Source: Promethearchaeota archaeon
GTDB taxonomy: Archaea; Asgardarchaeota; Lokiarchaeia; Sigyniarchaeales; SOKP01
Direction of reading: 5' to 3'
Assembly: GCA_019058245.1 (NCBI GenBank)
Contig: JAHPZJ010000027.1
Span: forward strand, 10,344 to 74,343
Length of the DNA: 64,000 nt
Shown here: positions 2,752 to 37,696 of the stretch, one piece after another
Position numbering within the stretch: the stretch's first letter is position 1
How the letters are laid out: the number at the start of each line of letters is the position of its first letter
The notes under the pieces: model-generated
Database searches by the model: none
Seen by the model: only the letters and a program-made list of their open reading frames with translations
Told to the model about the DNA's origin: nothing
Translations under genes and position numbers: made by a program

Positions 2752-3885
2752 TTATTTAGGTAAACAGACTATAAAAGTTGATCCTTTGTTTATACCTTGA
2801 GATTTTACAATTATTTTACCCTTATGCAATTGAACTATTTCTTTCGAAATATATAAACCCAAACCTGCACCTTCAGTATTAGTTTCCAAATTATTATCAA
2901 ATCTATTGATTTTACTAAACTTCTTAAACAATTGTCCTTTCTCTTTGTTTGTTAATCCAATACCAGTATCCTTGACTGAGATTTCTATGTTTTCTTTTTT
3001 AACATTTAAGTTAATAAAAATTGTACCATTAGAGGGCGTAAATTTTAATGCATTAGATATCAGATTAATTATAACTTGCTCTAATCTAATTCGATCAATG
3101 CTCAAAATACACTTTTGAGGTACATCTACTTTGATATTAATTTTTCTTTTATGTGCTCTAAGTTTTAAATCATTAACGCAATCTTGTATTAATTCAACAA
3201 GATCTTCATCTTTCAAGTCTAATTGCAATTCATCTGATTCTAATTTAGATATATCAAGCAGATTATCAATCAAAAGGCTTAATTTTTGGCTTCCCCTATA
3301 TATTATTTCAAGGTAATTTAATTCATTCTCTCTAAATTGTTCTTTGAAATTTTTTAAGAGAAATTGGGATGCCGCATAAACAGAGTTCAATGGAGTTTTG
3401 AGTTCATGAGATGCTTTCATTATCAATTCGCTTTTTATTTGACTTAATTCTTCTAATTTTTTATATTCTTCAAGATGAATACTTTCAGACTTCTTACGTT
3501 CAGATATATCTCGGGAGATTATAACTGCTTTAGTAATTCCACCTGTATCAATAAATTTCTTCCCTTTATGTTCAAACCAGATATAATGTCCATCTTTATG
3601 CATCAGTCTCATTTCATTTCTACTTTCCCCATATTTAAAAATATTTCTTATTGTTTTAGTGGCTATTTTCAAATCATCAGGATGTATGTTAAGAAGTGGG
3701 TTCTTTCCAATTAACTCTTCTCTTAAATAGCCCAAACTATCAAAAACTGCTTTCTCATTAATATATTCATGCTCTAATTTATCATTTAAAATTGTAATTA
3801 AGTCATTAGCATTATCTAAAATCATTTTATATTTTTTCTCTGAATTACTTAATAGTTCTTCATTTGTCATAAATCCATTAAACAC
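2752..3885 (-). CDS. PAS-domain sensor histidine kinase
   Basis: N-terminal PAS-like segment, H-box SHELKTPLNS, N-box LISNALKFT, and G-boxes DTGIGL and GAGLGLYISKEIV. Confidence 0.85.
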   Translation of the reverse strand: MFNGFMTNEELLSNSEKKYKMILDNANDLITILNDKLEHEYINEKAVFDSLGYLREELIGKNPLLNIHPDDLKIATKTIRNIFKYGESRNEMRLMHKDGHYIWFEHKGKKFIDTGGITKAVIISRDISERKKSESIHLEEYKKLEELSQIKSELIMKASHELKTPLNSVYAASQFLLKNFKEQFRENELNYLEIIYRGSQKLSLLIDNLLDISKLESDELQLDLKDEDLVELIQDCVNDLKLRAHKRKINIKVDVPQKCILSIDRIRLEQVIINLISNALKFTPSNGTIFINLNVKKENIEISVKDTGIGLTNKEKGQLFKKFSKINRFDNNLETNTEGAGLGLYISKEIVQLHKGKIIVKSQGINKGSTFIVCLPK

Positions 3886-6171: not shown

Positions 6172-6990
6172 ATGATCGCTATGAACACCACTCGAAATCC
6201 AGATCAATCTAATAAAAAATTGCATATGCTCGGTTATGGGTTATTAAATATTTCAGATCTCAAGTCTGGTGGAAAACTTAATGTGACTTTTCAATATGGT
6301 ATAGGGGTATCGCTAATTCAAAATATTTTCGAATTATATAAAAATGAAATTGTCAGCAAAAAACAGGGAAATTCTATTGTTCCTTTAGAAGAATTTACAA
6401 TTTATATTCAGTATTTTAAAAATGGAGAAGAAAACATATCTGTAATAATATATATGGAAGAAAAGGAACCAAACGTACCTGTAAATTATCCAAAATTATA
6501 CTTTTTGTCGAAAAAAATCAATAAACAAATTCTTTCTGGGACACCCATACCAAAACTAAGAGATATTTTTAAATCTGAGATTGAGATTCCAAAATCTGAT
6601 GGGGTTATAGCAATATTCATTATTGGATCCACTGGAAGTCCATTTGTTTCAAAGATTAATAAAAGTCGTTCAAGTATAGCTGAGCATGAAGTTCACATAG
6701 GTGGATTTATTTCAGCTTTATTATCATTTTCAAATACAATTATCGGTGAGGAAACTGGCGCCAAGCTTAAAGAGATTAATTTTGGAAACCAACAATTTTA
6801 CGTCATATCAAAGAGTAATGTTATTTTTGCCTTTTTAGTTGAAAATATGAATTCATTACTTCAAAGATATATGTATCTTCTCACGGATGAATTTCTTTTC
6901 GATTTCCGCGACTATATAAAGGATTTTAATGGGGATGTTACTCCATTTAATGAATTCGAAAAGAAAATAAATCAATATTTTATAATTTAA
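6172..6990 (+). CDS. hypothetical protein; C-terminal domain paralogous to 62473..62862
   Basis: 272-aa ORF ending 18 nt before cheW. The C-terminal segment HIGGFISALLSFSNTI...LKEINFGNQQFYV...FNEFEKKI aligns by eye with LFGGLMSALNTIAETL...FQLSNMRFAI...FDDFEKEI of 62473..62862. Confidence 0.55.
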   Translation: MIAMNTTRNPDQSNKKLHMLGYGLLNISDLKSGGKLNVTFQYGIGVSLIQNIFELYKNEIVSKKQGNSIVPLEEFTIYIQYFKNGEENISVIIYMEEKEPNVPVNYPKLYFLSKKINKQILSGTPIPKLRDIFKSEIEIPKSDGVIAIFIIGSTGSPFVSKINKSRSSIAEHEVHIGGFISALLSFSNTIIGEETGAKLKEINFGNQQFYVISKSNVIFAFLVENMNSLLQRYMYLLTDEFLFDFRDYIKDFNGDVTPFNEFEKKINQYFII

Positions 6991-7008: not shown

Positions 7009-7542
7009 ATGAGTCAAAAACAAGAATATGAAGGAATAAATCAAGTGTCTATCCTCTCCTTCCAGATTGGATGGGAAGAGTTCTGCATTGATTTGAATGA
7101 TGTTAAGGAAATAATTCAAGCAGGGTTAGTAAGAAAATTGCCTAAAAGCTTAGATTACATAGATGGAATCTATAATTATAGAGGAGAAATTATTCATGTA
7201 ATTAACTTAAAGAAAAAACTAGAATTGGATCAATCTCTATTATATCAATCTCGAAATTCCTCATATAAACAAGATTTGAAATCTACGAAGAAATTCATCA
7301 TCATCCTAAAGATTGATAACAATTTAATTGGGGTTTATACAGATTCTATCCTTAGTATCGATCATATAAACCCTTCTGAGATAATAGGATTAAGTCCAAT
7401 CTTTCAGACCAGTGTTGCTATTGATTATATTAAAGGAATTATTAAATTCGAAGAAAGACCAAGAATTCTGCTTGATTTAAGTAAAATTTTCAATGATATT
7501 GATAAATTTAGAATTAAGCAAGATTTATCATCTTTAACATAA
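7009..7542 (+). CDS. cheW: chemotaxis coupling protein CheW
   Basis: 177-aa single CheW-like domain (SFQIGWEEFCIDLNDVKEI..., GIYNYRGEIIHVINLKK). Confidence 0.9.
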   Translation: MSQKQEYEGINQVSILSFQIGWEEFCIDLNDVKEIIQAGLVRKLPKSLDYIDGIYNYRGEIIHVINLKKKLELDQSLLYQSRNSSYKQDLKSTKKFIIILKIDNNLIGVYTDSILSIDHINPSEIIGLSPIFQTSVAIDYIKGIIKFEERPRILLDLSKIFNDIDKFRIKQDLSSLT

Positions 7543-7569: not shown

Positions 7570-7956
7570 ATGGTAAAAAATGAAAAAAAGAAGGTTCTAA
7601 TAGTAGATGATGCTCAGTTTACGCGTAACATGCTTAAAAACATAATTAATAAAATTGAACAAATTGAAGTTGTAGGTGAAGCTTCAAATGGAGTAGAAGC
7701 AATCTCCTTATATAAAAAATTAAATCCAGACTTAGTTACTATGGATTTAGTAATGCCAGAAAAGGGTGGTATTGAAGCAACAGAGGAGATTCTGAAAATA
7801 AACCCAAAAGCAATAATTATTGTGGTTTCTGCACTAGGTCAAGAAGCTTTAGTTCTTGAAGCAGCAAAAAAAGGGGCAAAAGATTTCATTCAGAAGCCCT
7901 TCAAGAATGAGCAAATCTTAGAGGTAATGAACCGAATACTAAAATCTGGCGAGTAA
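7570..7956 (+). CDS. cheY: chemotaxis response regulator CheY
   Basis: 128-aa receiver domain with VLIVDD, DLVTMDLVMP and KPF; AGGAG lies upstream. Confidence 0.9.
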   Translation: MVKNEKKKVLIVDDAQFTRNMLKNIINKIEQIEVVGEASNGVEAISLYKKLNPDLVTMDLVMPEKGGIEATEEILKINPKAIIIVVSALGQEALVLEAAKKGAKDFIQKPFKNEQILEVMNRILKSGE

Positions 7957-8041: not shown

Positions 8042-10117
8042 GTGTCATCTAAAGACGATATAAAACTTTTTATAAGTGAAGCTGAGGATTTGATTCAGAA
8101 GACGGAGGATGAAATTCTAACTCTGGAAGAAAATCCTAATAATTCTAAACCGATTAAAGAACTCTTCTTCACATTTCATACATTAAAGGGATTAACCGCA
8201 ATGGTTGGCTTTGACAATTTATCTAAGTTCTGCCATCATTTTGAATCATTTTTAGATAATGCTCAGAAGAATAAAGTTTCTAAAACGAAAAGAGATAATT
8301 TCATAGACATGCTATTTGAGAGTCTTGATGTGTTAAAAAATGTCTTAAATCAGGTAAAAAAAGGAGATATGAAAGATATTGATGCAAATTTTGTTGAAGA
8401 TATAAAAAATAGCTTTGAAAGTTTTGAAACTGAAGAATATGATATCACCTTTATTGAAGCTTTAAATTTAGAAGAAATTTCTAAATTACTTAATCAGAAT
8501 CAAAATAAATCATTCAAGATTTATATTCGTCTTGAAGACACCTGTGTTTTTAAAAAAGTAAGATTATTCATTATCTTTAGAGCATTAAATGAAAATGGTA
8601 AAATATGTTGGACTAATCCTGTTCCTGAGGAGTTAGAAAGAGCAACAATCAGAAATGATTTTGAAATATACTTTATCACTAAAAATAATAAAGAGAATAT
8701 TTTCCAGATTTTAGATGAGATCTTAGAAATAGAAAACATTGTTATTACACCAATAAAATCTGAAGAATTCAAGAATACAATTGCCGATCTCAAGGGAAAA
8801 TGGGAACTTCAAAAATCAGCTTCAATAAGTGATGATATAATTATTGAAGATTATGATGAAGAAGTTGATGTTGAAGAAATTGAGAGAGTTTCTCATATTA
8901 CAGAGGGTTATACAGATGGTACTGTTAAAATTATGAGTGTTAAAGTTAATATTGAATATCTAGAGGAACTAATGAATTATTTCGGAGAGTTGGTAATAAT
9001 GAAAAATCATATTAGTCAACTTTTAAAAGAAAAAGAAGATAGAACACTAGCAAGATTAATCGATAAAATGGATAAACCCTTTTTAGATATTCAAGAAATT
9101 CTTTTTAAATTAAAATTAGTTAGAGTTGAATCAACTTTCAGAAAATATAAACGCTTAGTTCGTGATGTGGCAAATGAAACAGGGAAAAAAATAAGACTAA
9201 TTTTAGAAGGAACTAATGTTGAAATCGATAGAAAAATTTTAGAAGAAATTAATTCTCCTCTAGTTCATTTACTTAGAAATGCAATTTATCATGGTATTGA
9301 ACCACCAAAAGAACGAATTAAAAAAGGTAAAGATGAATTTGGAATCTTAAAACTAAGAACATATAGAAGAGCAGGATCAATTTTTATAGAGGTCCAAGAT
9401 GATGGTGCTGGTATTAATTATGATAAAATAAGAGAACAGGTTGTGAATAAAGGATATTATGATATAGATGAGGCCAAAGAATTAACCAAAGAAGATTTAA
9501 ATCACTTTATTCTTTTACCTGGGTTTTCTACACTCTCGGATGCAGACCTTATTTCAGGGAGAGGTATGGGGTTGGCTATTGTAGCCGAGAGAATTAAGGA
9601 ATTGGGTGGTGATTTTAGCATCCATTCAGAAAAAGATATAGGTACGAAATTTACATTAGACGTACCCTTTACGAGGGCAATATTAAGAGCTCAATTAATC
9701 CAAATAGCTGATGATTTATTTGCAATTCCAACTGAAAATATAAAACAAATATATTTTTACAATCCTAACCAAGTTGAATACATTGAGGGAGAACAATATT
9801 ATAAAATAGATTCAAAAATAGTACCTTTAATTCATTTAAGTGACCATTTAAATATGGTAAATGAAAGTGAGACGAATTCTCATAAAAAAATCGCTATATG
9901 GTGCCAAAAAGATGAAGAAAATTCAGCAGTATTTGTTGCTGATAAACAACTTCAACAGTTGGATGTAGTTGTTAAACCTTTTAAATCTAATTTTTCTGAC
10001 TCTCGTGATATATTAGGTTCTACAATTACAGGTGAAGGAATTATTTGCCTAATAATTGATGTGTTGAGCATTATTACCTCTAAAACAAATGAAAAAATAA
10101 TTTCTAATTTAACATAA
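8042..10117 (+). CDS. cheA: chemotaxis histidine kinase CheA
   Basis: HPt (FHTLKG), N-box HLLRNAIYHGIE, G-boxes DDGAGI and GRGMGL, and a C-terminal CheW-like domain. GTG start follows AGGTGAT. Confidence 0.95.
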   Translation: MSSKDDIKLFISEAEDLIQKTEDEILTLEENPNNSKPIKELFFTFHTLKGLTAMVGFDNLSKFCHHFESFLDNAQKNKVSKTKRDNFIDMLFESLDVLKNVLNQVKKGDMKDIDANFVEDIKNSFESFETEEYDITFIEALNLEEISKLLNQNQNKSFKIYIRLEDTCVFKKVRLFIIFRALNENGKICWTNPVPEELERATIRNDFEIYFITKNNKENIFQILDEILEIENIVITPIKSEEFKNTIADLKGKWELQKSASISDDIIIEDYDEEVDVEEIERVSHITEGYTDGTVKIMSVKVNIEYLEELMNYFGELVIMKNHISQLLKEKEDRTLARLIDKMDKPFLDIQEILFKLKLVRVESTFRKYKRLVRDVANETGKKIRLILEGTNVEIDRKILEEINSPLVHLLRNAIYHGIEPPKERIKKGKDEFGILKLRTYRRAGSIFIEVQDDGAGINYDKIREQVVNKGYYDIDEAKELTKEDLNHFILLPGFSTLSDADLISGRGMGLAIVAERIKELGGDFSIHSEKDIGTKFTLDVPFTRAILRAQLIQIADDLFAIPTENIKQIYFYNPNQVEYIEGEQYYKIDSKIVPLIHLSDHLNMVNESETNSHKKIAIWCQKDEENSAVFVADKQLQQLDVVVKPFKSNFSDSRDILGSTITGEGIICLIIDVLSIITSKTNEKIISNLT

Positions 10118-10171: not shown

Positions 10172-12199
10172 ATGGGTTTTAAAAAAATTGATATTGACGA
10201 ATTAAAAACAAAAGCAAGCCCAACTTTTCTTGGTATACCTATCAGGGAAGGAGGTAAACTTATCCAAAAAAGCTATAGAGAAAAAAAAATTGAATCAAGT
10301 TACATGGGAACAAGCTCAGAAGTATTGATATTAAATGAAGAATTTTTGGAATATGATTATCAAAACGATGGAACAAGAAAAGGAGTTATAGGTAATGGAA
10401 ATATTTCAATTTTCAATAATTCTATTAAAGATAGAATCTGGGATGCAAATTTACAATTTTCTGGCTCACAGTTTAATAACCAGAAAGCCGAAAATAATCT
10501 TAATTTAGGTGTCTTTGAACCTAATTCAAATAAAGTATTGAAATATGAAATTATAAATTCTGAGGATTTGCCGGATTTAATAAATGTAACTGAAAGTATT
10601 GATAACCTTAATGAAGATATTGGAATCTTTAGAAATAGTTATGAGGATTTAGAATTAAGTAATCATGAAATCTTGGAAAAAAGTCAGGATAAAAATTATT
10701 TATTGTTATGGGGAAAAGAGAATAAGGTAAAATTTACAATTAACATTGCTAACGTATCATCATATACACTTGTTAATATTAAGTTTAAAAAATTATTTGC
10801 AAATGTTTTTTACGATTTGGAATTTAAGTGCGAAAAAAGTAAGGAATTTAAAGTTATTAGAAATTCTATAGAAAGTTCATTAAATAATATTAATCCAGGT
10901 GAAAGTATTGATATAGTTATTTATGCAAAAGTATTTCCCAAAAAGAAAGAAAATATCAAAACAGGAAATATTGAATTAACATTTAACTTATCAAATAGAG
11001 TAATTTCCGGAGTAACAATCGATCATTTCTCAGCATATTCTCATGCGATGCATGCCATTAAAAAAACGGAAAAGATTCACGAACCTAATAACTGGAAATG
11101 TTCTCTTATATTCGAAAACTTAAGTGATTTTTCATTAAAATTGAAATCTATCCAAATATTTGATAAAAATAAAAAAAATAAAATTCTGGATTTAGATTCT
11201 AGAACACTAAGAAAACAAGTAGTCAATCCTCATGGTAAATATAAAACAGATTCTTTTTATTTTGTTGATGAAAAGGAGCCAATATTTTCAAGAAAAGTTG
11301 AATATTCTATTGGTTACAAGACTGAAAAGAATTCAATGATTACTTCCAGATATGAAGATAATTTCTTTGTCATTGCTCATTCAACAACAAAAAAGAAATT
11401 ATCAGACGAAGAGATTAAATCATTTGAAGAGGCTTCAGTACATTCCCAAATAACAATCAGTAATCAAGGGACGATACCAATCAGGGGTCTACAAATTATA
11501 GAAAAAATACCTGAAGATTTTTTACCTACAGGAAATATTTCAGATTATACATTAAGTAAATCCTCGGGTAAATTAATAATTGATGATCTTGAATTAAAAA
11601 TAAAGCCTGATGATGAAGATTCTTCTCATGAACACACCATAGAATTAAATATCAATTTAAAAACCAGTAGTTTAAATTCAGTAATTGATGTGGATAATTT
11701 CTTAGAGTTAAAGTATCCTCTTAAAGCAGTAAACCCAGATTATAAAAGAGATTATAATTTTCCACTTAGAGTTTATATCTTTTACTCAAAATATAAGGAT
11801 TCTGATCGAAAAGAGTATTACATGATATCGGAAGATCTTTCTGATATGGATAAATCTAAAATAAGAATTACTCATAAAAGAAGAAAAGTTACTATTGGAA
11901 AACAGATTTATCCAGGAAGGAGCGCTAATGAATTTGCTATTTATATTATCGCAAAAAATGGTTCAAATATGAAAATGAATGATATAAATATTACAGATTC
12001 TTTTCCAGATTCATTTGAAATGATCTCCTCAAATGCAGAATATAAGCTCACTAAATCAAAGAAAAATGCTGAACAAAAAATATCCTTTACAGTTGATACT
12101 CTTTTACCTTACCAAGAAAAAGAGATAATGTATTATTTAAAAAATATAACTGAAAAAGAGATAAAATCATCAGAATTAGAGTCATTTTTTGTTGGATAA
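10172..12199 (+). CDS. hypothetical 675-aa protein inside the che operon
   Basis: Long ORF with a GGAGG SD and no signal peptide or TM segment. Repeated segments (INIANVSSYTLVNIKF, ITISNQGTIPIRGLQII, YIIAKNGSNMKMNDINITDSFP) resemble CARDB/DUF11-type beta-sandwich strands; this is inference. Confidence 0.65.
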   Translation: MGFKKIDIDELKTKASPTFLGIPIREGGKLIQKSYREKKIESSYMGTSSEVLILNEEFLEYDYQNDGTRKGVIGNGNISIFNNSIKDRIWDANLQFSGSQFNNQKAENNLNLGVFEPNSNKVLKYEIINSEDLPDLINVTESIDNLNEDIGIFRNSYEDLELSNHEILEKSQDKNYLLLWGKENKVKFTINIANVSSYTLVNIKFKKLFANVFYDLEFKCEKSKEFKVIRNSIESSLNNINPGESIDIVIYAKVFPKKKENIKTGNIELTFNLSNRVISGVTIDHFSAYSHAMHAIKKTEKIHEPNNWKCSLIFENLSDFSLKLKSIQIFDKNKKNKILDLDSRTLRKQVVNPHGKYKTDSFYFVDEKEPIFSRKVEYSIGYKTEKNSMITSRYEDNFFVIAHSTTKKKLSDEEIKSFEEASVHSQITISNQGTIPIRGLQIIEKIPEDFLPTGNISDYTLSKSSGKLIIDDLELKIKPDDEDSSHEHTIELNINLKTSSLNSVIDVDNFLELKYPLKAVNPDYKRDYNFPLRVYIFYSKYKDSDRKEYYMISEDLSDMDKSKIRITHKRRKVTIGKQIYPGRSANEFAIYIIAKNGSNMKMNDINITDSFPDSFEMISSNAEYKLTKSKKNAEQKISFTVDTLLPYQEKEIMYYLKNITEKEIKSSELESFFVG

Positions 12200-12237: not shown

Positions 12238-13080
12238 ATGAAACTACAATATTATGAAATGATGGATGATAAATCTAAAAAATATTTATTATATCTCATC
12301 GAACAAGTCTTGCCCCAATTCACTGTAAGTGAACTTAAACTTTTTTTGGAAGATTTTTCTAATAACCTTAAAAATGGAAAAAAGTCTTCAAAATCAGCTA
12401 AAAATTATGTTGAAATAGGAAATGATGCAGGAAAATTAGCTGATTTATCAAACTTAACCATAGAAGAGTTAAAATTAATGTTCCAAATTTATATAAGCCG
12501 AGAAAAAAATGATAAATTTAGTATTAAGTGGCGGTTTTATCAATATCTTAAATACATGTTAGATTTAGACCTAAAATCAGTTAAAGTTAACCAAGATCTT
12601 AATCCAGACTCATTAATTGATTTGATTGTTGAAACCGTAGAAAAAGAAGTAATTCTTATATTATGTTATGATGTTTTAAGTATAGACATTTATAATAAAG
12701 CTATAATTAAGATAAATGAATTTGCAAAGGAAGAAAATTTAATTCCTGATAGAATTATTTTTGCTGTGGGTAAATCATTTCGTAATATACCAATTGATAT
12801 ACCTATAAAAATTATCAACAAGGAGCTTATACCTGAATTATGGATTGAATGGATTGAAGAGAACTGTCCCTTCAATAGAGAAGATTTAATTATTGTAAAT
12901 GATAGAGAACTAAAACTCGCGGGTTTTAACTTTACTAATATAGAGGATATGCTGAATTATATATTTAGATATTCCAATGGTGGGCAAATTACCATATATA
13001 GACAGGTCGATTTTTTTACAGAAGTTGATGAGGATGAACCCGAATTGGAATTAATTTGGAAAGGAATTATGTTAAAATAA
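12238..13080 (+). CDS. hypothetical 280-aa protein inside the che operon
   Basis: ORF with an AGGAGG SD and no recognisable motif. It is not CheR, because no SAM-binding motif is present. Confidence 0.6.
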   Translation: MKLQYYEMMDDKSKKYLLYLIEQVLPQFTVSELKLFLEDFSNNLKNGKKSSKSAKNYVEIGNDAGKLADLSNLTIEELKLMFQIYISREKNDKFSIKWRFYQYLKYMLDLDLKSVKVNQDLNPDSLIDLIVETVEKEVILILCYDVLSIDIYNKAIIKINEFAKEENLIPDRIIFAVGKSFRNIPIDIPIKIINKELIPELWIEWIEENCPFNREDLIIVNDRELKLAGFNFTNIEDMLNYIFRYSNGGQITIYRQVDFFTEVDEDEPELELIWKGIMLK

Positions 13081-13121: not shown

Positions 13122-15113
13122 ATGTTAGAAACTGAATTTCAAAATAACGAATTTAAAGATACAATAAACGTAGTAATTATTCAAGTTCTTGATGAAAGAT
13201 ATCTTATAGAAGTTAAAAATATAAAGGAAATTTATGTTCCAGGGGATAATATCATTCCCGTTCCTTTAACAGATAAATCCATACTTGGTATTATTAATAT
13301 AAGAGGAGAAATTTATTCAATTATCTCATTAAGACATAATATATCTGATGATAATGATATTGATTATGGTTTATCTAACACATCACGGATTTTACTATTA
13401 GAATATGAAGACTTAAAAATAGCTTTATTAGTAGATTCCGTAATTGGCGTTAAAAATATTCCCCTTTCAATCTTCAAAAAACAAGGTACTATTGTAAAAA
13501 CAAGTATTGATTTCAGATTGATAAAATTAACTGGAATTTTTCAGGATGAAGCACTTATATTATTAGACCTACAAGCTTTAATTCAACCTTATTTGAAATC
13601 TCAGGTTAAGAAAGTAGAGAAAAAGATAGAACAAAAACCTAAAGTCCTTGAACGTGCTAAAATCCACCCTAAAGTGAAGCCAAAAACAACACCAGAACCT
13701 AGCAGCATTGAATCAGCTGTTATAATCCCTCAAAAAACACCATCTGAAATGCAGCTGACTAAGATTCCAGTAGAAAAAAAACGAAAACAAGTATCATTAT
13801 CGAATGAACAGCAAGATATTCTTAGAGAGATTGGTAATATAGGAACTGGAAACGCTGTTACAGCTTTATCACGACTAGTTAAAAAGAAAATAGATGTTAC
13901 TCTCACAGATGTAGGTATTATACCTTTAAATGAATTACCAAAACAATTTGGTGGTGCTAAAGAGAAAGTATGCGGGATTTTTTGTCATATAGATAAACCA
14001 TCTCAAGCAACTATTTTAAATATTTTTGAAATGCAACCACTAATGAAATTGATAGCACAATTAGCGGGGCCTCAATCTAAGATAGATCCTAAAAAGGTGA
14101 AATCTAAAAAAGATCTTGATGATTTTGCTATTTCCACTATTGTAGAGATGGGTAATATTATGGCAGGGCATTATGCCTCTGCATTAGCTGATTTATTAGA
14201 AACAAAAATGCTGATTGATATTCCGGAATTTACAATGAGTAAAGCTGGAGAAATTGGAGAATTTCTTTCTAAAGAATTAGAATCTATTGCGGAGTATTTT
14301 ATTATAATAAAAACTTCAGTAAACGTAGCGGATTTGAAACTGACAGGTATGTTCTTCTTTATCCCTGATCTTGAAACGTTAAAGACATTTTTCAATAAAT
14401 TAGGTATTGAACATGATATACCTGTCAAGATAATGACAACTAAAAGAGCAACTGAAATCCCAAGTATCGATAAGATAAAGCTTTCAGAAGTGCAAAGAGA
14501 TGCGTTACAAGAAGTCGGAAATATTGGTGCTGGAAATGCCGCTAACGCCTTAGCTCAAATGATTAACAAAAGAGTAGATATAAATATTCCATCAGTAGAG
14601 ATGGTTGAATTGGATGAGTATGCAAATACTATGAGTAATAAAAATGAGACCCTTTTGGTCGCTTGGAGTAATGTTACTGGTAAAACTCGAGCTACTGTCC
14701 TGACATTGTTTAATATAAAAGATGCTATTGATATAACCTCAATAATAGTAGATGATAGAGATAAAAAACAAATCGATCTTAGAAAAAAAATTAGTAAAGC
14801 GTCTGATTTTCCTGAGCTTTATCATAGTGCAATATCTGAACTAGGGCATATATTAGGTAGCCATTATGTAAGTGCAATTGGGGATTTATTAGGTATAAGA
14901 TTAATGACAGAACCTCCAGATATGAGCGTGGACACGGGACGTCAATTATTTAAAATTTTAAAAGAGGAAATTGGATTACTAAAAAAATTATCACTGGTTA
15001 TTACTACAAATGTGATTATCACAGACATTAAAGTTACTGGTACTTTCTTGTTCATTCCCAACTTAGAAACATTACAAGAATTATTGGAGGCACTTTTAAA
15101 GTTTTATTCTTAA
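13122..15113 (+). CDS. CheW-CheC-CheC fusion protein (CheY-P phosphatase-like)
   Basis: The N-terminal CheW-like domain (IIQVLDERYLIEVKNIKEI..GIINIRGEIYSIISL) is followed by a Lys/Pro-rich linker. Two CheC-type modules follow, carrying ExxN sites: REIGNIGTGNAVTALS, VEMGNIMAGHYASALA, QEVGNIGAGNAANALA, and a degenerate SELGHILGSHYVSAI. Confidence 0.8.
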   Translation: MLETEFQNNEFKDTINVVIIQVLDERYLIEVKNIKEIYVPGDNIIPVPLTDKSILGIINIRGEIYSIISLRHNISDDNDIDYGLSNTSRILLLEYEDLKIALLVDSVIGVKNIPLSIFKKQGTIVKTSIDFRLIKLTGIFQDEALILLDLQALIQPYLKSQVKKVEKKIEQKPKVLERAKIHPKVKPKTTPEPSSIESAVIIPQKTPSEMQLTKIPVEKKRKQVSLSNEQQDILREIGNIGTGNAVTALSRLVKKKIDVTLTDVGIIPLNELPKQFGGAKEKVCGIFCHIDKPSQATILNIFEMQPLMKLIAQLAGPQSKIDPKKVKSKKDLDDFAISTIVEMGNIMAGHYASALADLLETKMLIDIPEFTMSKAGEIGEFLSKELESIAEYFIIIKTSVNVADLKLTGMFFFIPDLETLKTFFNKLGIEHDIPVKIMTTKRATEIPSIDKIKLSEVQRDALQEVGNIGAGNAANALAQMINKRVDINIPSVEMVELDEYANTMSNKNETLLVAWSNVTGKTRATVLTLFNIKDAIDITSIIVDDRDKKQIDLRKKISKASDFPELYHSAISELGHILGSHYVSAIGDLLGIRLMTEPPDMSVDTGRQLFKILKEEIGLLKKLSLVITTNVIITDIKVTGTFLFIPNLETLQELLEALLKFYS

Positions 15114-15234
15114 ATTAATCATTAAGAATTATTTTTATCTCAATTTTATTCTAAAATTTCAAAATCGAATGAAGAAGATTTATATTTAAAATAAATCTAA
15201 ATAGAATATTAAAAATTATAGATAGGGATTAAAT

Positions 15235-15789
15235 ATGTTAAAAAGCGGTTATTACGACTTTATTTATGAAGTACAAGGTGAAACACTTAAACTAAGGCCC
15301 GAGAAGATGTTTGATCCCAATTGCGTGTATTTAATAGTAGATAAGGAGTTAAAACTTATTTGGATCTGGGCGGGTAGTCATTCTCGATTATTTCATCGAT
15401 ATATGGCAGCTAATTTTGCAGGAAAACTCAAGACAAAAAAGAAATTTTATAATTTTAAATATGAAGTCGTTAAAGAAGGTATTGAACCTCCTGAATTTCA
15501 TATAATATACAAAGAGATTAAAGAACAAAATTCTACTATAACCTATCCTGGGCAATCTAGATATATTGTTAAACAAACTCAAGCCCCAAGTAGTTATGGG
15601 GGAACTTCATCTTTAGATACAAGTTTAGAATCTAAAATAATTCTAGATGGTCGAGAATTATCAAAATCTGTCAAATCTCGTATTAAAAAAATTTTATCTG
15701 AGATAAAAGAAATTCAATCACATATAACTTATTCAATTAATCATATCCAACAACGTTTTGCCGAAATTGAAAAATTATTAGAAAATTAG
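15235..15789 (+). CDS. gelsolin-like domain protein with C-terminal coiled coil
   Basis: The N-terminal 95 aa follow the gelsolin-repeat pattern: CVYLIVDKELKLIWIWAGSHS...AANFAGKL...EVVKEGIEPPEF. Compare the remembered gelsolin G1 pattern AYVILKT..LHYWLGNECS...QHREVQGFESATF. Confidence 0.6.
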   Translation: MLKSGYYDFIYEVQGETLKLRPEKMFDPNCVYLIVDKELKLIWIWAGSHSRLFHRYMAANFAGKLKTKKKFYNFKYEVVKEGIEPPEFHIIYKEIKEQNSTITYPGQSRYIVKQTQAPSSYGGTSSLDTSLESKIILDGRELSKSVKSRIKKILSEIKEIQSHITYSINHIQQRFAEIEKLLEN

Positions 15790-16062
15790 AGTGTTTAGAA
15801 ACGATAAGAATTAAGGATATTAGATTTGATTCGAATTATTTAAAACTGCTAACGTACCTATTAATTAATAATATTGAATTTACTTCTGATTATAATAGAA
15901 GAAATATTGTCAAAAGAAGAATCAGTTATTGAATTATTGAAAGGAGGTAAAAGTCAAGAGAATTGTTAATTTTAGGAAAAATAGAGTAAAAAATTTAATC
16001 AGAATATAATTAAAAACTTAAAGTTTGTTATAATCATATGTAATTGAAAAAAGAGGGCTCAA

Positions 16063-17205
16063 ATGTCGATTAAGGTTCTTTTAGCGGAAGATTCAAGCTA
16101 TCAGAGAAAGCTAATAACTGATATGCTATTATCAAGCAAGGAGATTTCTAAAGTAGAAGTTGCTAAAAATGGAAAAGAAGCTATTAAAAAAATTGAGTCA
16201 GTAAATCCAGATGTTTTAATTTTAGATTTAATAATGCCTAAAATAGACGGAATAACGGTGTTCAAATTCCTTTCAGAACATTATCCAATACCTACAATAA
16301 TATTTACAGCTAAATCTCCAGAAACATTAGATGATTCTGTTCAAGCTTTACTTTTAGGAGCATTTGATTTTATTGTAAAACCAAAAGGACTATGGAAAGA
16401 AGAACTCCCCAAATTAAAAGAAAAATTAATTTTTAGTACGCTTTATGCGAGTAAAATAAAAAAGACCTATGAAAAACGAAATTTATTAATAAAGAAATCT
16501 TTCGAGAAACCTCTTAATTTGATAACTGAACAATATCAAATAATTAAAAAGCCTAAACCAAAGATTGAAAAAGCTCTGAAAATAACACCCTTACTTGAAG
16601 GTAAATTAACACCCAATGCAATAGTTATAGGAACTAGTACTGGTGGTCCTAGAACCTTAAAAACAATATTAAAAGATATTCCAAAAGATTTTTCATCACC
16701 AATTTTAATGGTTCAACATTTAGATGAATTCTTTATGAAAGAATTCTCAAAATCATTAAATCAGGTCAGTAAAATTGAAGTTAAAATTCCTGTTAATGGG
16801 GAAAAAATTCTTCCAGGAATTGCTTATCTTAGTCCAGGAGAAAAACATATGGAAGTTGCCCAAAGAAACAAGATACAATACATTAAAATACTTGATGGGG
16901 AGCCTGTTAATTTTTGTAAGCCTTCGGTGGATGTTTTATTCCTTTCAGCAGCAAAAGTATATAAGGATCGAATTTTGGGGATCTTACTAACAGGTTTAGG
17001 ACAAGATGGTGCAGCTGGTTTAGAAGCAATTAAAAAAGGAGGAGGCCAAACAATTGCAGAATCAGAACAAACATGTGTGGTATATGGTATGCCTAAAGCG
17101 GCGGTAAAGAGAGGAGCTGCAAATTTAATCTTACCTAATTACCAAATTAAAGAACATATGTTAAAATTTGCTAGAAAAAATAAGGGTAATCCAATATATT
17201 CATAA
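16063..17205 (+). CDS. cheB: chemotaxis methylesterase/deamidase CheB (REC + esterase)
   Basis: Receiver domain (VLLAEDS, DVLILDLIMP) plus an esterase domain with GTSTGGP, MVQHL and GQDGAAGL. Confidence 0.9.
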   Translation: MSIKVLLAEDSSYQRKLITDMLLSSKEISKVEVAKNGKEAIKKIESVNPDVLILDLIMPKIDGITVFKFLSEHYPIPTIIFTAKSPETLDDSVQALLLGAFDFIVKPKGLWKEELPKLKEKLIFSTLYASKIKKTYEKRNLLIKKSFEKPLNLITEQYQIIKKPKPKIEKALKITPLLEGKLTPNAIVIGTSTGGPRTLKTILKDIPKDFSSPILMVQHLDEFFMKEFSKSLNQVSKIEVKIPVNGEKILPGIAYLSPGEKHMEVAQRNKIQYIKILDGEPVNFCKPSVDVLFLSAAKVYKDRILGILLTGLGQDGAAGLEAIKKGGGQTIAESEQTCVVYGMPKAAVKRGAANLILPNYQIKEHMLKFARKNKGNPIYS

Positions 17206-17226: not shown

Positions 17227-17775
17227 GTGAAAAAGATAAAACCCCATGGATGTATTGAAAAACCAAACACTGATGGAAAAATTATCTTACCAATAGGGCA
17301 TTATGCTATTGTAAATTGTAGAAATAAACCAAATAATATTTATACAAAAATATCAATTTATGGATTAGGGTCTTGTATTGCTCTGATACTTTTTGATAGT
17401 AAAAATAAAGTAAGTGGAATGTCTCATATATTACTTCCAAAATGTCAACTAAACAAAAAAATTGAATATCCTCACAAATATGCTGATCTCTCAGCAAATC
17501 TGTTACTTCAAGAATTATTAAACCGTGGAGCAATTAAGAAAAATATAAAAGCTGTGATTGTTGGGGGTTCAAAGATTTTTGAATTAGATGAAAATGGTAT
17601 AGGGATTAATAATATCAAAGCAATTAAAAATGAATTAAAAAAATTAGAAATTAAGATTATAGGAGAAAATACAGGAGGATCTGAAGGAAGAGTTGTCATA
17701 TTTGACACTAAAGATTTCTCAGTCTATGTTAGATTAACAAGAGAATCAAATCTTCAAAAAATAAAGTATTCATGA
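17227..17775 (+). CDS. cheD: chemoreceptor glutamine deamidase CheD
   Basis: 182 aa with GLGSCIALILFD and SHILLP motifs; GTG start. Confidence 0.85.
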   Translation: MKKIKPHGCIEKPNTDGKIILPIGHYAIVNCRNKPNNIYTKISIYGLGSCIALILFDSKNKVSGMSHILLPKCQLNKKIEYPHKYADLSANLLLQELLNRGAIKKNIKAVIVGGSKIFELDENGIGINNIKAIKNELKKLEIKIIGENTGGSEGRVVIFDTKDFSVYVRLTRESNLQKIKYS

Positions 17776-17816
17776 TATAATAATTTTAAAAAGATTTAAA
17801 ATTGAGAGGATTAAAA

Positions 17817-18470
17817 ATGAAAAAGCCAATTGATATAAAATTAACACAAGAACAATTAGACATTTTAAAAGAATTAGGTAATATCGGTTCTGGGCATGCA
17901 ATAACAGCACTTTCCAAATTACTTAATATTAAAATCGATGTTTCATTGACATCCATAGATATTGTTCCTTTTTGGAAAGTTCCCGAACTATTTAATAAGT
18001 CTGCAATTGATATGGTTGGAATCTATTCTAAGATTCCCTTTAAATCAGATTTAGCAATTATCCAATTATTTACAAAAGTATCGATAGTAAGTCTAATCAA
18101 TATTTTATCTGATAATGACAAAATTATGGTTGATGATATAAAAACTATTGATGATTTGGATGATTTTTCAGTAAGTATTATAAGTGAAATTGGAAATATC
18201 TTATCTGGTCATTATACTAATGCTTTAGCTGATATGCTATCAATTAAACTGGTACCAAATGTTCCAAAAATCGCATTAGATTCTTTGAATGCTATTTTAG
18301 AAACCTTAATTGCTAAATTTTCTCAATTGTCAGATTATATGATTTTAATAAATACAAAATTAATAGTTTTAGATGTAAATATAGAAGGTATAATCTGTCT
18401 TATCCCTTCAATCAATATCTTAAAAAATCTATTTAATATTCTAAACTTAAAATACGATCTAAATCTCTAG
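17817..18470 (+). CDS. cheC: CheY-P phosphatase CheC
   Basis: Two ExxN sites (LKELGNIGSGHAITALS and ISEIGNILSGHYTNALA). The ORF track starts at TTG 17802; the ATG at 17817 follows GAGAGGA and is preferred. Confidence 0.85.
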   Translation: MKKPIDIKLTQEQLDILKELGNIGSGHAITALSKLLNIKIDVSLTSIDIVPFWKVPELFNKSAIDMVGIYSKIPFKSDLAIIQLFTKVSIVSLINILSDNDKIMVDDIKTIDDLDDFSVSIISEIGNILSGHYTNALADMLSIKLVPNVPKIALDSLNAILETLIAKFSQLSDYMILINTKLIVLDVNIEGIICLIPSINILKNLFNILNLKYDLNL

Positions 18471-18611
18471 GAAAGATATTTGATGATATGTACAAATAAA
18501 CAAGCTTAATTTATTTTCAGTGAAATTTTATTTTTGGGTTTTAGTAACATATATATTTTCTAACTTTACTATTTATTAGAATAATTAATTAAATATAATT
18601 AGGAGAGTTAT

Positions 18612-19970
18612 TTGACGATTGATGTGGTTATTGCTGATGACAGCGCATTTTTAAGAAAAAATATAGCAAATATTCTAAAAGAACATGATTCAATTGATAT
18701 TACTGGATTTGCGAAGGATGGAGAAGAAGCTGTTAAACTTGTTAAAGAAATTAGCCCAGATGTCTTAGTTTTAGATTTAGTAATGCCTAAAATGAATGGA
18801 TTGGATGCATTCAAACTAATAATGGAGGAAAATCCCACGCCTACTGTTGTCCTTTCAGCTATTAGTCCAAAAAAACTGGACTCTTCCATTCAAGCTCTTT
18901 TAATGGGTGCTTTTGATTATATCATAAAACCAGGGGGTATTGGAGCAAAACCATTGCCAAGATTTCGTGAAGAATTACTCGCTAAAGTATTGTTAGCGTC
19001 TCAATCACAAATTAAAAAAATATTCAGAAAAGGAGAAATTATATTAAAAAAAGGAAGATCTCTCCGCCAGGAGATGGTTAATCGAATTTTTGATTTTGGA
19101 CAATATCTTAACAGATTAGAACCTATTCAAGAAATTGAGGAAGAACAAAAATACGATTCTTTCGAAATTATGAAGGTTAAGGCAATCCTCAAGGATGAAA
19201 CTAAGGGTAAATTAGCAGAGTCAGCATCGAGTGAAGAAATTAATAAGGCAATAATAAGTACATCAGAAACAAGTGAAGAAAGGATAGAACAGATATCAAG
19301 AAAATCAGCATTACTAAAAAAATCAACAAATGCACAATTTAAAAAGAGTAAAACAGTAAATATTCCTGATCTCTCCCCTATTAAAGGAACTACAATAAGT
19401 TCAAATATAATTGTTATAGGTGCTAGCGTTGGAGGACCTAGAACAATAACAACAATATTAAAAGAAATTCCAAGAAATTTTAAGGCACCAATCTTAATCG
19501 TTCAGCATTTATCTTCTCATTTTACAGATGCTTTTGCAGATAATTTAGATATGGAATGTGAACTCAAAATAAAAGTAGCTAATAATGGAGATTATATTAA
19601 ACCTGGTTATGTTTATCTTGCCCCTGGAGATGTGCATATGGAAATCTCTGTTGAAAATAATACACCTCTAATCAAAGTTTATAAAGGAAGTCCTGTTAAC
19701 TTTTGCATGCCTTCTATAGATGTATTATTTTTTTCAGCAGCAAAAGTTTATAGAAATCATGCTATGGGAATAATTCTAACTGGAATGGGCTCAGATGGTG
19801 TAGAAGGTCTGGGAGCAATTAAAAGAGTGGGTGGAAAGACAATAGCAGAAGATAAAAGTACTTCTATACTTTATGCTATGCCAAAATTTGCCTCTGAGAA
19901 AGGATATGCTAAACTTGTATTACCAAATTATAATATAAAAGATGAAATGATAAAATTCATTGGAAATTAG
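18612..19970 (+). CDS. cheB: second CheB paralogue with a long inter-domain linker
   Basis: Receiver domain (VVIADDS, DVLVLDLVMP), a long charged Ser/Glu/Lys-rich linker, then an esterase domain with GASVGGP, IVQHL and GSDGVEGL. TTG start follows AGGAG. Confidence 0.85.
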   Translation: MTIDVVIADDSAFLRKNIANILKEHDSIDITGFAKDGEEAVKLVKEISPDVLVLDLVMPKMNGLDAFKLIMEENPTPTVVLSAISPKKLDSSIQALLMGAFDYIIKPGGIGAKPLPRFREELLAKVLLASQSQIKKIFRKGEIILKKGRSLRQEMVNRIFDFGQYLNRLEPIQEIEEEQKYDSFEIMKVKAILKDETKGKLAESASSEEINKAIISTSETSEERIEQISRKSALLKKSTNAQFKKSKTVNIPDLSPIKGTTISSNIIVIGASVGGPRTITTILKEIPRNFKAPILIVQHLSSHFTDAFADNLDMECELKIKVANNGDYIKPGYVYLAPGDVHMEISVENNTPLIKVYKGSPVNFCMPSIDVLFFSAAKVYRNHAMGIILTGMGSDGVEGLGAIKRVGGKTIAEDKSTSILYAMPKFASEKGYAKLVLPNYNIKDEMIKFIGN

Positions 19971-33051: not shown

Positions 33052-35424
33052 TTATAATTTAATAGATCTCGCAATAACAGTTCTGAAATTTTCGACATCA
33101 TTAACTAATTTATCAGCGTCTTCATCGTTAATCTTATCATCTTTACCGTATTTATTCAATTGAGTAAGCCAAAACTCAATTCTACCAAGAATAGCTTCTT
33201 TTTCACCTAGTACTTTTCGCAGTCGTACAAAAGTATCATGTAATTTGTTTCTTATATTTTGAGCTTTCCATCTCAACATACAATAATCAGAAATTTCTGC
33301 CAAATTTTGGGTTATCGCCATTACATCAATAGTTTTTTCTCGTTCCTCTGATTTAATCTTCCGTATTATATTTATTTCCTCAAATAAAAGCTCTATTATC
33401 TTAGCAAGGAAGCCAGTAAGTTGACCTGAATGGTTACACCAAACTCTAACCTCTAAAGACTGATTTACCTCAGATACATAAACTCGTGTTACAATTCTTC
33501 CACCACCAACCTTTGCTTCGGAACAATGCCAACTTTCTGCTTCATATTTTCCTTTCGCATCACTACCTTCATGAGAAGTGACTGTACTTACTTCAAAACG
33601 CTTTATTGTTCTTACTGCCGCTCTAAATGCTAAGCGGGGGTCTAAATCAGCAATTAAAAATGCTCGAGCATCATTAGGAAGATCTGCAATAGCTATTTGG
33701 ATATCTTCAATTGTAGCTAAACAAGAAACTACCAAAGGACATTTTATTTGCACTTCTTTTTTTCTTATATGGACAGTTTTTTTGTCTCCTGATGCCGTTT
33801 TGTAGATTACATCACCACCAATATTCGATATCCCACATTCTTTTGGTTCTAAATAGAAATCAACACCTCTAGAATTTTTAGCTTCGATAACTGGTATATT
33901 TATTAGATGATCCTTCGCTTTATAACTAGTTGGTACATCTAAGAGTACTTTAACTGAATTAATTGTCATACTACCTTGATTACGGATGACTACTTTAAAG
34001 TGTAATTGACCTCCAATAAAATCATATTCACGAACTACTTCAATTTTCCCACCATCAGTAGGTTCTTTAGTAATTTTCTGTGTTGATTGATCTTTTACTT
34101 CCATTGGTACACTATAAGCCACAAATGTTCTCTTTGACATATCAATATATCCATCAATATCACCGCGAGCAATAATCTGAGCTAAATTTTCTTCAATGCT
34201 TGATTCAGTTACTCCTAATCTATTAGCTAATTCTCTTAAAGGCATAGTTCTATATGCTCTTGCAAGTTCTTTTATTTTCTTCTCCATATATTTATTTGTC
34301 ATAAATTCTCTTCTTTGTGTAAAGATTCCTTTGATAGAACCTGTTTTTATAAGTTCATGAAGGCTTTTTCTTGCTAATTCTACAGCAATTTTTAATTTTG
34401 TGGCTAGTTTTGAAAGCTCAAATAATCCTGTCTCTTTAGAATAGTTTTTAATATCTTGATAAATTTGATCTGCTGTAATGATTTCATTTCCACGATCTGC
34501 AAAAAATCCGTTAATGGATTTTGTTCTCATTATGTTTACACAAAATGACTTTACAAGTTCCGTTGGAATGTGAAAATTATTTGCAAGTTGTTTTAAGGAG
34601 ACCCTACCTTTAGATTTTACTTCTTTTATCAAATTATCTAGGATATATTTTTGAGTATAATACGTCTCTTTATCTAATGAGAAAGATCCTTTTATTTGGA
34701 ATTGATTAATTAATTTATAAATTACTTTTATAGCTATATCAGAACTCATATCAAGCATTATTCCTAAATCTGCTACCTTAACTGAACCTTCACTCTGAAA
34801 CTTTGCTAATACTTTTTTCCGTATTTCGGTAGAGATATAATAAAACATCTGATTTTTTTGATCAATAATTCCATAGATTCTTTCTTCTTCTATATATTTA
34901 TTGATGAATTTAACCATCTGTTCGGCTGAGATATTAAATGAATTCATAATTGTTGAAAAGTTAATTATCGGGGCTCTTTTTAATAGATCCAAGAAACATT
35001 TAGGACATACTTCCCTTCCTATAATATGTCTTAATTTCTTACTACATAATGTCATTTTACTTCCTTTCATAAGGCCATATCTTATCGCTTCTCTTGCTAA
35101 TTTCTCTTTTGATGGAAAAAATAAACCTGGGGTTTTTAGATATGAATTCCAAGCTTCTGGACAATCAGTATTAGTACATTCTAAATAATATTGACCTGAA
35201 GATAACCTTTCCAATCTTAAAAGATGCTTACAAACAGGACATTCACTATTATCTACAACGGTACATTTATAGTTTCTTTCTATTGCCTTTACTTTTGAAT
35301 AGAAGAGATTGTGTTTTCGACACTCATGAGTTTCTGTGGTTGCTATATGATTAATACAGAAACTGGAATTACATTTTTCACACGTAAAGTCGATTCTTTC
35401 GCTTTCACAAAATAAACATTTCAT
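33052..35424 (-). CDS. large multidomain protein: AN1-like zinc finger, further CxxC ribbons, four winged-helix-like repeats, beta-sandwich-like C-terminal region
   Basis: 790 aa. C3-x2-C6-x8-C15-x2-C18-x4-C23-x2-H26-x6-H33-x-C35 is close to the AN1 pattern. Four segments of about 60 aa repeat, each ending ...G(S/D)I(K/D)G(I/Y/F)F. Confidence 0.55.
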   Translation of the reverse strand: MKCLFCESERIDFTCEKCNSSFCINHIATTETHECRKHNLFYSKVKAIERNYKCTVVDNSECPVCKHLLRLERLSSGQYYLECTNTDCPEAWNSYLKTPGLFFPSKEKLAREAIRYGLMKGSKMTLCSKKLRHIIGREVCPKCFLDLLKRAPIINFSTIMNSFNISAEQMVKFINKYIEEERIYGIIDQKNQMFYYISTEIRKKVLAKFQSEGSVKVADLGIMLDMSSDIAIKVIYKLINQFQIKGSFSLDKETYYTQKYILDNLIKEVKSKGRVSLKQLANNFHIPTELVKSFCVNIMRTKSINGFFADRGNEIITADQIYQDIKNYSKETGLFELSKLATKLKIAVELARKSLHELIKTGSIKGIFTQRREFMTNKYMEKKIKELARAYRTMPLRELANRLGVTESSIEENLAQIIARGDIDGYIDMSKRTFVAYSVPMEVKDQSTQKITKEPTDGGKIEVVREYDFIGGQLHFKVVIRNQGSMTINSVKVLLDVPTSYKAKDHLINIPVIEAKNSRGVDFYLEPKECGISNIGGDVIYKTASGDKKTVHIRKKEVQIKCPLVVSCLATIEDIQIAIADLPNDARAFLIADLDPRLAFRAAVRTIKRFEVSTVTSHEGSDAKGKYEAESWHCSEAKVGGGRIVTRVYVSEVNQSLEVRVWCNHSGQLTGFLAKIIELLFEEINIIRKIKSEEREKTIDVMAITQNLAEISDYCMLRWKAQNIRNKLHDTFVRLRKVLGEKEAILGRIEFWLTQLNKYGKDDKINDEDADKLVNDVENFRTVIARSIKL

Positions 35425-37686: not shown

Positions 37687-37696
37687 TCTCTATTAT

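Follow-up and report, generated by a model that had tools for sequence, protein, structure and literature searches.

A gelsolin-type protein in an Asgard chemotaxis gene cluster as a candidate link between chemosensing and actin

A chemotaxis (che) gene cluster of a Promethearchaeota archaeon encodes a 184-aa protein, here named GEL, which is very probably a gelsolin-fold protein dedicated to this cluster. The cluster lies on a stretch of 64,000 nucleotides, referred to below as the window (contig JAHPZJ010000027.1 of assembly GCA_019058245.1, positions 10,344 to 74,343 of the forward strand), and the GEL gene occupies positions 15235..15789 of its plus strand as an open reading frame (ORF) with an ATG start, predicting a protein of 21.6 kDa and pI 9.3. 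Comparison with related genomes identifies GEL as a fixed component of one lokiarchaeial-type Che cluster, always encoded beside a CheW-CheC-CheC fusion protein. The explanation that we favour, a gelsolin linking the Che apparatus to actin, has as a whole a probability of roughly 0.42. Its two parts differ in strength: the chances that GEL binds actin appear evenly balanced, and the coupling of chemosensing to actin is the more tentative of the two.

Asgard cells possess actin filaments, profilins and gelsolins, and the signals controlling them are the question that GEL addresses. Some Asgard archaea carry chemotaxis genes of bacterial type and have chemoreceptor arrays that can be seen in their cells; the output of both is in question. 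With GEL there is a first concrete candidate for something that would physically join chemosensing to the actin cytoskeleton, and these questions become direct experiments with small soluble proteins. Asgard gelsolins, including those that join a gelsolin domain to a coiled coil (PMC7444086), and the che genes of Lokiarchaeia (PMC9834061) are already known. An association of gelsolin or GTPase genes with che genes in Asgard archaea is not described in the searchable full texts, which include few subscription journals. The novelty therefore appears to lie in a dedicated gelsolin subfamily fixed in the che cluster, in the company of longin/roadblock and Roadblock-GTPase genes.

GEL is a genuine gene under strong purifying selection. 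It has 148 homologues at E ≤ 1e-3, most of them spanning 99-100% of its length, and comparison with the nearest relative gives a dN/dS of 0.12 for the whole gene and of 0.03 for codons 1-100. A chance or spurious ORF is ruled out by these homologues and by the selection they reveal. All members of the family are annotated as "hypothetical protein" and have no precomputed Pfam domain. All named homologues of the genes in the window, which is AT-rich (27.9% G+C), belong to metagenome-assembled genomes (MAGs) of Asgard archaea (Promethearchaeota).

The gelsolin domain and the C-terminal helix

The gelsolin-fold domain comprises approximately residues 6-100 (15250..15534, plus strand) and coincides with the most strongly constrained part of the gene. 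The AlphaFold2 model of GEL displays a beta-hairpin, two core strands, a long helix, a strand and a short helix, with strands at residues 10-14, 17-20, 31-36, 41-46 and 75-80 and helices at residues 52-65 and 86-97. The mixed beta-sheet is placed between the long helix, which runs parallel to the strands, and the short helix, as is characteristic of the gelsolin fold. The model is confident in this region, with pLDDT of 85-96 across residues 11-110 and 80 for residues 1-10. Among PDB structures, Foldseek finds the best match of the model in the Thorarchaeota ProGel/actin complex (7c2f_B, E 1.7e-6, target TM 0.75, rmsd 2.1 A), which makes ProGel the closest known gelsolin in this comparison. 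Without exception, the 36 matches reaching E ≤ 1e-3 are domains of gelsolin, adseverin, villin, CapG or Asgard gelsolins.

Sequence profiles lead to the same family. In a phmmer search of PDB sequences, GEL alone retrieves villin (1.3e-4), ProGel 7c2f (2.1e-4), 2DGel3 and Heimdall 2DGel; nearly all other matches are gelsolin-family proteins, apart from four weak unrelated ones with E values of 0.19-6.6. A profile built from the GEL family and compared with 177,635 PDB sequences finds Thorarchaeota ProGel 7c2f_B at E 1.1e-6, and 2DGel3 and Heimdall 2DGel at 9.5e-4. Against 1.84 billion representative proteins, the family itself accounts for 17 representatives at E ≤ 1e-30, followed at 1e-15 to 1e-4 by a paralogous family and by multi-repeat gelsolins; genuine PF00626 proteins appear at 1e-15 to 1e-9. 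The proteins retrieved by the family profile score against the Pfam Gelsolin model PF00626 at 1e-11 to 1e-59, the multi-repeat gelsolins among them at 1e-31 to 1e-59. A sequence-only reading of the window had recognised a gelsolin-repeat pattern in the first 95 residues of GEL, and both the profile and the structural comparison bear it out. The Pfam model gives a mixed answer: the single GEL sequence stays below the cutoff (16.1 against 21 bits), but 24 of 40 family members match at E ≤ 0.1, the best of them at 1.9e-4, and the family profile connects to gelsolins directly.

Conservation was assessed in an alignment of these 40 members, which are 45-84% identical. The residues D36, W43, W45, G47, S50-Y56, A58-N60, G63-K66, Y76, E77, E84, P85 and F88 are invariant. 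All motifs named in the earlier reading are thus conserved: the strand VYLIVD with D36, the strand IWIWAGSHS with W43, W45 and G47, the long helix, and EVVKEGIEPPEF with E84, P85 and F88. The hallmarks of the ADF/cofilin family are a WP motif and extra helices around the core. In GEL, the gelsolin "DWG" motif (D36...W45-x-G47, 15340..15375, plus strand), invariant in the 40 sequences, is present in place of WP, which rules out ADF/cofilin membership; there is no Pfam Cofilin_ADF match, and none of the 50 Foldseek matches listed (at E ≤ 1.8e-3 throughout) is an ADF/cofilin entry. The DWG motif, where the Asp is hydrogen-bonded to the Trp and an obligatory Gly follows, separates gelsolin from cofilin domains (bioRxiv 10.1101/768580; PMC7444086). 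The gelsolin repeat ends with an E-P-x-x-F motif (EPPEF, 15484..15498, plus strand), which is aligned with EPAAF and EPAEF of ProGel and 2DGel3.

The most conserved element of the domain is the long helix with its N-cap at residues 51-66 (RLFHRYMAANFAGKLK; 15385..15432, plus strand), which is near-invariant. Its mean column entropy is 0.13 bits, against 0.84-1.2 bits elsewhere in the domain. The helix had been placed at AANFAGKL; it does exist, and its true extent in the AlphaFold2 model is residues 52-65 (LFHRYMAANFAGKL). It aligns with the ProGel helix ELFKKLMGTRVAAKL, with which it has the pattern xLFxxxMxxxxAxKL in common. In the crystal structures of ProGel, 2DGel, gelsolin G1 and cofilin-family proteins, this helix sits in the cleft that lies between subdomains 1 and 3 of actin (PMC7444086).

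GEL appears to have no calcium site. In the profile alignment to domain 1 of 2DGel3, the Asp of GDCYL corresponds to C/G30 of GEL and the Glu of VDEKF to H54; from the known gelsolin sites, we regard these two acidic amino acids as the type-II Ca2+ ligands of 2DGel3. Since the aligned positions are non-acidic in GEL, a calcium-regulated gelsolin is ruled out, and the protein would be calcium-independent. At the position of the Glu, ProGel has Lys where GEL has His, and ProGel is also devoid of Ca2+ sites (PMC7444086).

The remainder of the protein had been described as a coiled coil throughout, which holds for residues 144-183 and not for the segments before them. Residues 101-115 comprise a conserved YPGQSR motif and a short helix. 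The core of this motif, P-G-x-S-R (PGQSR, preceded by Y104; 15547..15561, plus strand), has invariant P105, G106 and R109, and S108 is conserved in at least 90% of the sequences. Residues 116-143 (15580..15663, plus strand) form a variable and probably disordered linker, with pLDDT below 50 over residues 116-137 and an entropy of 2.9 bits. The C-terminal amphipathic helix at residues 144-183 (15664..15783, plus strand) consists of five heptads and is modelled with pLDDT of approximately 73-92 by 10-residue block. Isoleucine occupies each heptad "a" position (I150, I157, I164, I171 and I178), the "a" register is 100% hydrophobic in the 40 sequences, and the periodicity peaks at 3.5. This helix is likely to form a coiled coil and to serve as an oligomerisation or docking element. 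A WH2-like motif, "IKKI", was considered in the helix and dropped for lack of conservation in the family.

Position in the che cluster and gene order in relatives

As the earlier reading had noted, GEL is situated amid che genes, directly after the CheW-CheC fusion and on the same strand. A spacer of 121 bp separates it from this CheW-CheC-CheC fusion, and CheB, CheD, CheC and a second CheB come after it. The fusion (13122..15113, 663 aa) is recognised by Pfam CheW at 2e-19 and CheC at 1e-37 in four stretches, and by NCBIfam CheC at 1.8e-65. The position of GEL beside it was traced through 35 loci from GTDB species-representative genomes, all of them Promethearchaeota MAGs, in which each gene of the cluster was mapped. 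The fusion gene, cheW-cheC, lies immediately 5' of GEL in all 33 loci that contain enough upstream DNA, across a spacer of 66-201 bp (median 114). The expectation of a conserved neighbourhood is thus upheld: all 33 of these species representatives keep the cheW-cheC neighbour, and GEL is clearly not a gene missing from the che clusters of related genomes.

The downstream side of GEL is more variable. Across 29 species, the gene 3' of GEL is cheR in 15, cheB in seven, a small GTPase gene in three, cheD in three and nothing che-like in one (L041), where the cheW-cheC/GEL pair is intact. The pair is also intact in the closed chromosome CP070831.1 (L021), although the cluster is split there and its 10-kb flank does not contain the genes otherwise found 5' of cheW-cheC. 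The same arrangement recurs on metagenomic contigs and in the most divergent member found, and the adjacency holds down to 41% identity. A degenerate DNA pattern for G-x-x-S-R-L-F-H-R-Y-[MI]-A-A occurs in 30 stretches within 596 Gb, all in Asgard MAGs and all on contigs already found by a peptide-pattern scan. In the pattern scans of species-representative genomes, the GEL family is seen only in che clusters. The converse appears to hold as well: among the matches listed, at least 17 Asgard CheW-CheC-CheC fusions are found, all in genomes that carry GEL, including one (L062) where the fusion lies at a contig edge and GEL on another contig of the same genome. No GEL-type gelsolin is fused to a Che domain among 113 profile matches. 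The family is probably absent from L. ossiferum, since neither the peptide-pattern nor the degenerate-DNA scan of species-representative genomes returned a record from it. Among the matches listed outside Asgard archaea (L067-L128), the CheC part of the fusion is closest to Bacillota-type CheC/FliY, at approximately 30% identity, which agrees with che genes of bacterial origin.

The spacer between cheW-cheC and GEL (15114..15234, plus strand) probably contains a transcriptional boundary. Just after the cheW-cheC stop codon, most relatives have an oligo-T run of T8-T12, which in the window is T5, and A/T-rich sequence comes next. Oligo-T tracts act as archaeal terminators, and the spacer therefore probably combines a terminator and a promoter, in which case GEL would head a second operon with cheR, cheB, cheD and cheC.

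Apart from a few extra members, the cluster is otherwise canonical. All its genes are on the plus strand. Pfam identifies cheW (7009..7542), cheY (7570..7956) and cheA (8042..10117; CheA domains are also precomputed for its orthologues) upstream of the fusion, and cheB (16063..17205), cheD (17227..17775), cheC (17802..18470) and the second cheB (18612..19970) downstream of GEL. The 273-bp gap after GEL (15790..16062) holds a relic of cheR, recognised by tblastn and synteny: approximately 45 N-terminal codons (15804-15938, 38% identical to CheR residues 6-50) and approximately 18 C-terminal codons (15933-15986) are left, and the methyltransferase core is deleted. The gene is also gone from the nearest relatives of the window, one of which keeps a 68-aa stub, and no cheR was found elsewhere in the window.

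Two of the extra members equal GEL in their conservation within the cluster. The 675-aa protein (10172..12199) gives only a weak DUF11/CLIPPER beta-sandwich signal and has no evident signal peptide by eye. The 280-aa protein (12238..13080) matches nothing in Pfam, NCBIfam or PDB sequences, and neither does a profile of its family. Both genes accompany GEL in nearly all loci that reach the upstream DNA, and both are absent from the 10 kb 5' of cheW-cheC in L021.

The remaining extra members recall small-GTPase systems. The first gene of the cluster (6172..6990) encodes a 272-aa protein with no sequence-family match in Pfam, NCBIfam or PDB sequences, the AlphaFold2 model of which (pLDDT 84, pTM 0.79) displays two longin/roadblock-type domains in tandem. 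In Foldseek, the model resembles Fuzzy/CPLANE (4.7e-5), Mon1-Ccz1, bacterial and Thorarchaeota Roadblock/LC7 proteins, and LAMTOR. Nearly all related clusters with DNA reaching that far contain the gene. Longin/roadblock folds serve as platforms for guanine nucleotide exchange factors and GTPase-activating proteins of small GTPases. Furthermore, 21 of the 26 relatives with enough downstream DNA carry, between cheC and the second cheB, a 319-aa Roadblock-small-GTPase fusion (for example L004:14058-15017). Its N-terminus is Roadblock/LC7-like (Pfam E 1e-3, under the cutoff), and its GTPase part matches TIGR00231 at 1e-21 and Arf/Ras/Roc by precomputed Pfam. This gene is missing from the cluster of the window, where cheC and the second cheB are separated by a 141-bp gap (18471-18611). 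GEL is kept, with dN/dS of 0.03, in a lineage that has neither cheR nor the GTPase.

Elsewhere in the window, a PAS-histidine kinase is encoded 5' of the che cluster (2752-3885, minus strand). A 790-aa protein (33052-35424, minus strand) with Pfam matches to DDRGK, E3 UFM1-ligase-like, PCI and VPS28-like families is, by these matches, a eukaryote-signature mosaic of UFMylation-like and ESCRT-like parts. Two GT87-family glycosyltransferases are encoded around one gene (36391-39726, minus strand), and two coiled-coil proteins are encoded side by side (41004-42508, minus strand). A LuxE-like acyl-protein synthetase is found at 57401-58702 (plus strand), and a 129-aa protein at 62473-62862 (plus strand) comes close to the first longin domain of FUZ/MON1/HPS1 (PF19036, 25.7 bits against a cutoff of 26.1).

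Possible partners and functions of GEL

In the mechanism that we favour, the long helix of GEL would bind actin in the cleft between subdomains 1 and 3, and the linker with the five-heptad helix would oligomerise GEL or dock it on a helical component of the chemosensory apparatus. The prime candidate for docking would be the CheW-CheC-CheC scaffold, which is expected to reside in the receptor array and to bind phosphorylated CheY (CheY-P). With a helix that would bind actin and a coiled coil that would dock or oligomerise, GEL might physically connect the receptor array or CheY-P signalling to Lokiactin filaments. As an output device, it could sever, cap or bundle filaments locally and so bias the growth of protrusions; as a tether, it could position the arrays on the cytoskeleton. 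The constraint on the long helix and its likeness to that of ProGel offer indirect support for binding in the actin cleft. If the link is real, a prokaryotic sensory pathway drove a eukaryote-style cytoskeletal response before eukaryotes arose.

A number of observations weigh against this explanation. The single GEL sequence remains under the Pfam gathering score for Gelsolin, with an E value of 0.01. Homology of fold is no guarantee of actin affinity: the affinity of ProGel for rabbit actin is very weak (Kd approximately 337 uM; PMC7444086), and the gelsolin-like domain of Sec23a has no known actin binding (PMC7444086). The near-invariant helix could just as well serve to contact a Che protein. 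Paralogues encoded outside che clusters have the C-terminal helix too, so this helix is not evidently specialised for docking on Che proteins. A probable terminator separates GEL from cheW-cheC, and the absence of the Roadblock-GTPase gene from the window detracts from an analogy with polarity systems. The functional link between Che and actin is guilt by association only. Finally, archaella are reported from other Asgard archaea with che genes, so that the output of the Che system need not be actin: L. ossiferum, which has che genes and chemoreceptor arrays (PMC9834061), is said to encode archaellum machinery (2026 preprint), and N. marumarumayae is reported with both chemotaxis and archaellum machineries. 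The earlier suggestion that chemosensory signals go to actin rather than to a rotary motor is weakened accordingly.

The main rival of the favoured explanation is a gelsolin fold put to another use, in which the helix of GEL binds not actin but a Che component (CheY-P, a CheC domain, CheA or CheD), a GTPase or a longin/roadblock protein. We consider this somewhat unlikely, and the evidence is divided. The strict adjacency to cheW-cheC and the confinement to che clusters speak for a partner within the cluster, as does a degree of helix conservation beyond what the weakly binding ProGel suggests that actin needs. GEL is also basic (pI 9.3), and CheY-type receiver domains are acidic. The Sec23a domain provides a precedent for a gelsolin fold that does not bind actin (PMC7444086), and the gelsolin-like domains of Sec23/24 work without actin. 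However, the nearest relatives of GEL by both sequence and fold are the actin-binding Asgard gelsolins, the pattern of the helix is the same in those relatives and in the non-che paralogues, and none of the 113 profile matches unites the domain with a Che domain. Should the link to actin not be real, GEL would remain a clear example of how a gelsolin fold was taken into a signalling complex. Less probable, and improbable in absolute terms, is a role restricted to positioning, in which the arrays would be tethered to Lokiactin by GEL, so as to place or partition them, for instance into protrusions, with a purpose comparable to that of ParC/ParP or PpfA in bacteria, and would signal to another motor. 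The bipartite build of an adaptor, with an actin-type domain, a flexible linker and a coiled coil, would suit such a role, and the scaffold encoded by the invariant partner gene is of array type and has a CheW domain. Asgard archaea with che genes may possess archaella, and chemoreceptor arrays coexist with actin filaments in cells of L. ossiferum (PMC9834061). Yet the pattern scans detect no GEL family in the record of that very species, and a tether is indistinguishable from an effector at the level of sequence.

A broader form of the actin explanation, which we regard as unlikely but slightly less so than the positioning role, extends the favoured link into a complete pathway from MCP through CheA and CheY to actin. 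The scaffold would read CheY-P, and the dedicated gelsolin, joined in most relatives by the Roadblock-GTPase/longin module, would remodel Lokiactin locally and steer how protrusions grow or retract, in a form of chemotropism. Such a pathway would place a prokaryotic front end on a eukaryote-style back end of receptor, GTPase and actin regulator. It is very improbable, on the other hand, that GEL acts as a functional analogue of CheF, linking CheY-P to an archaellum or type-IV-filament motor irrespective of its gelsolin ancestry. An adaptor of this kind is normally required in archaeal Che systems, and no CheF protein (PF04283) was detected by Pfam or NCBIfam among the unassigned genes of the cluster. 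Its 272-aa and 280-aa proteins are rejected as CheF, since even their family profiles match nothing in Pfam, NCBIfam or PDB sequences. But GEL has no similarity to CheF, nor any Pfam or NCBIfam match to the Che families CheF, CheZ, CheX, CheV and CheW, and no archaellum genes occur among the ORFs of at least 120 aa across the 64-kb window or among the genes called at the loci for which neighbours were listed. An unrelated hitch-hiker in the cluster, or a spurious ORF, would explain why GEL has a spacer of its own with a probable terminator and promoter. Synteny and selection in effect refute this possibility, namely through the adjacency in 33 of 33 loci despite downstream rearrangement, the dN/dS of 0.03-0.12 and the 148 homologues.

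Relation to known systems

The logic of the cluster finds a parallel in the Frz system of Myxococcus xanthus, in which a Che-type pathway is tied to the Ras-like GTPase MglA, the Roadblock-fold protein MglB and an actin-family cytoskeleton, and not solely to a rotary motor. With a Roadblock-GTPase fusion in the clusters of relatives and a tandem longin/roadblock protein, the Asgard cluster looks, by analogy, like a pathway from chemosensing to polarity or cytoskeleton. The likeness is one of logic only: Frz has no gelsolin, and the window has no GTPase.

Among the gelsolins themselves, Akil et al. (2020) distinguish three Asgard architectures, ProGel, 2DGel and 1DGelX, of which the last consists of one gelsolin domain and a predicted coiled-coil domain X and is found only in Asgard archaea (PMC7444086). 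Thor ProGel, 1DGelX and 2DGel all bind rabbit actin, and Thor 1DGelX does so with a Kd of 7.7 uM and severs filaments independently of Ca2+ (PMC7444086). GEL has the 1DGelX architecture, with the domain at residues 6-100 followed by the heptad helix at 144-183. It is placed beside Thor 1DGelX by architecture and by the published description, as both have a single domain and a coiled coil and neither is expected to be under Ca2+ control. They differ in size, since 1DGelX runs near actin (42 kDa) on SDS gels and GEL has only 21.6 kDa and a 40-residue helix, and in context, as the main texts mention no che cluster for 1DGelX. MK-D1, which lacks the che gene set (PMC9834061), has two 1DGelX genes.

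ProGel (PDB 7c2f) is the top match of GEL by both sequence profile and structure, and has the DWG motif and a similar long helix, with 24% identity over the 79 columns aligned by Foldseek. It is a bare domain of approximately 90 aa, whereas in GEL the domain is followed by the YPGQSR motif, the linker and the coiled-coil helix, and GEL is far more conserved. The repeats of eukaryotic gelsolin, villin and CapG (PF00626) agree with GEL in fold, in the DWG motif and in the E-P-x-x-F ending, with Foldseek matches to G2, G3, adseverin A3 and villin V6 at 3e-5 to 1e-3. GEL has a single repeat, whereas the eukaryotic proteins have three to six.

The nearest relatives outside che clusters are a paralogous Asgard family (P0145-P0160) of 170-240 aa with the same layout of gelsolin domain, linker and C-terminal helix. 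Its members are 40% identical to GEL in the domain and, unlike GEL, exceed the Pfam Gelsolin cutoff; the profile match to them extends into the C-terminal part (query positions 10-177). Their neighbourhood is not that of che genes: it consists of a 135-aa gene, a 341-aa gene, the gelsolin gene, a gene for a FIST sensor-domain protein, LuxE and LuxC. At the paralogue loci (L047:74-601, L048:8001-8564 and L049:3788-4351), the cluster is flanked by Arf-like GTPase genes, and the position beside FIST makes this a second Asgard gelsolin that adjoins a sensory-domain gene. Since the closest non-che relatives share its layout and occupy a different neighbourhood, GEL is a specialised offshoot of an existing type of Asgard gelsolin.

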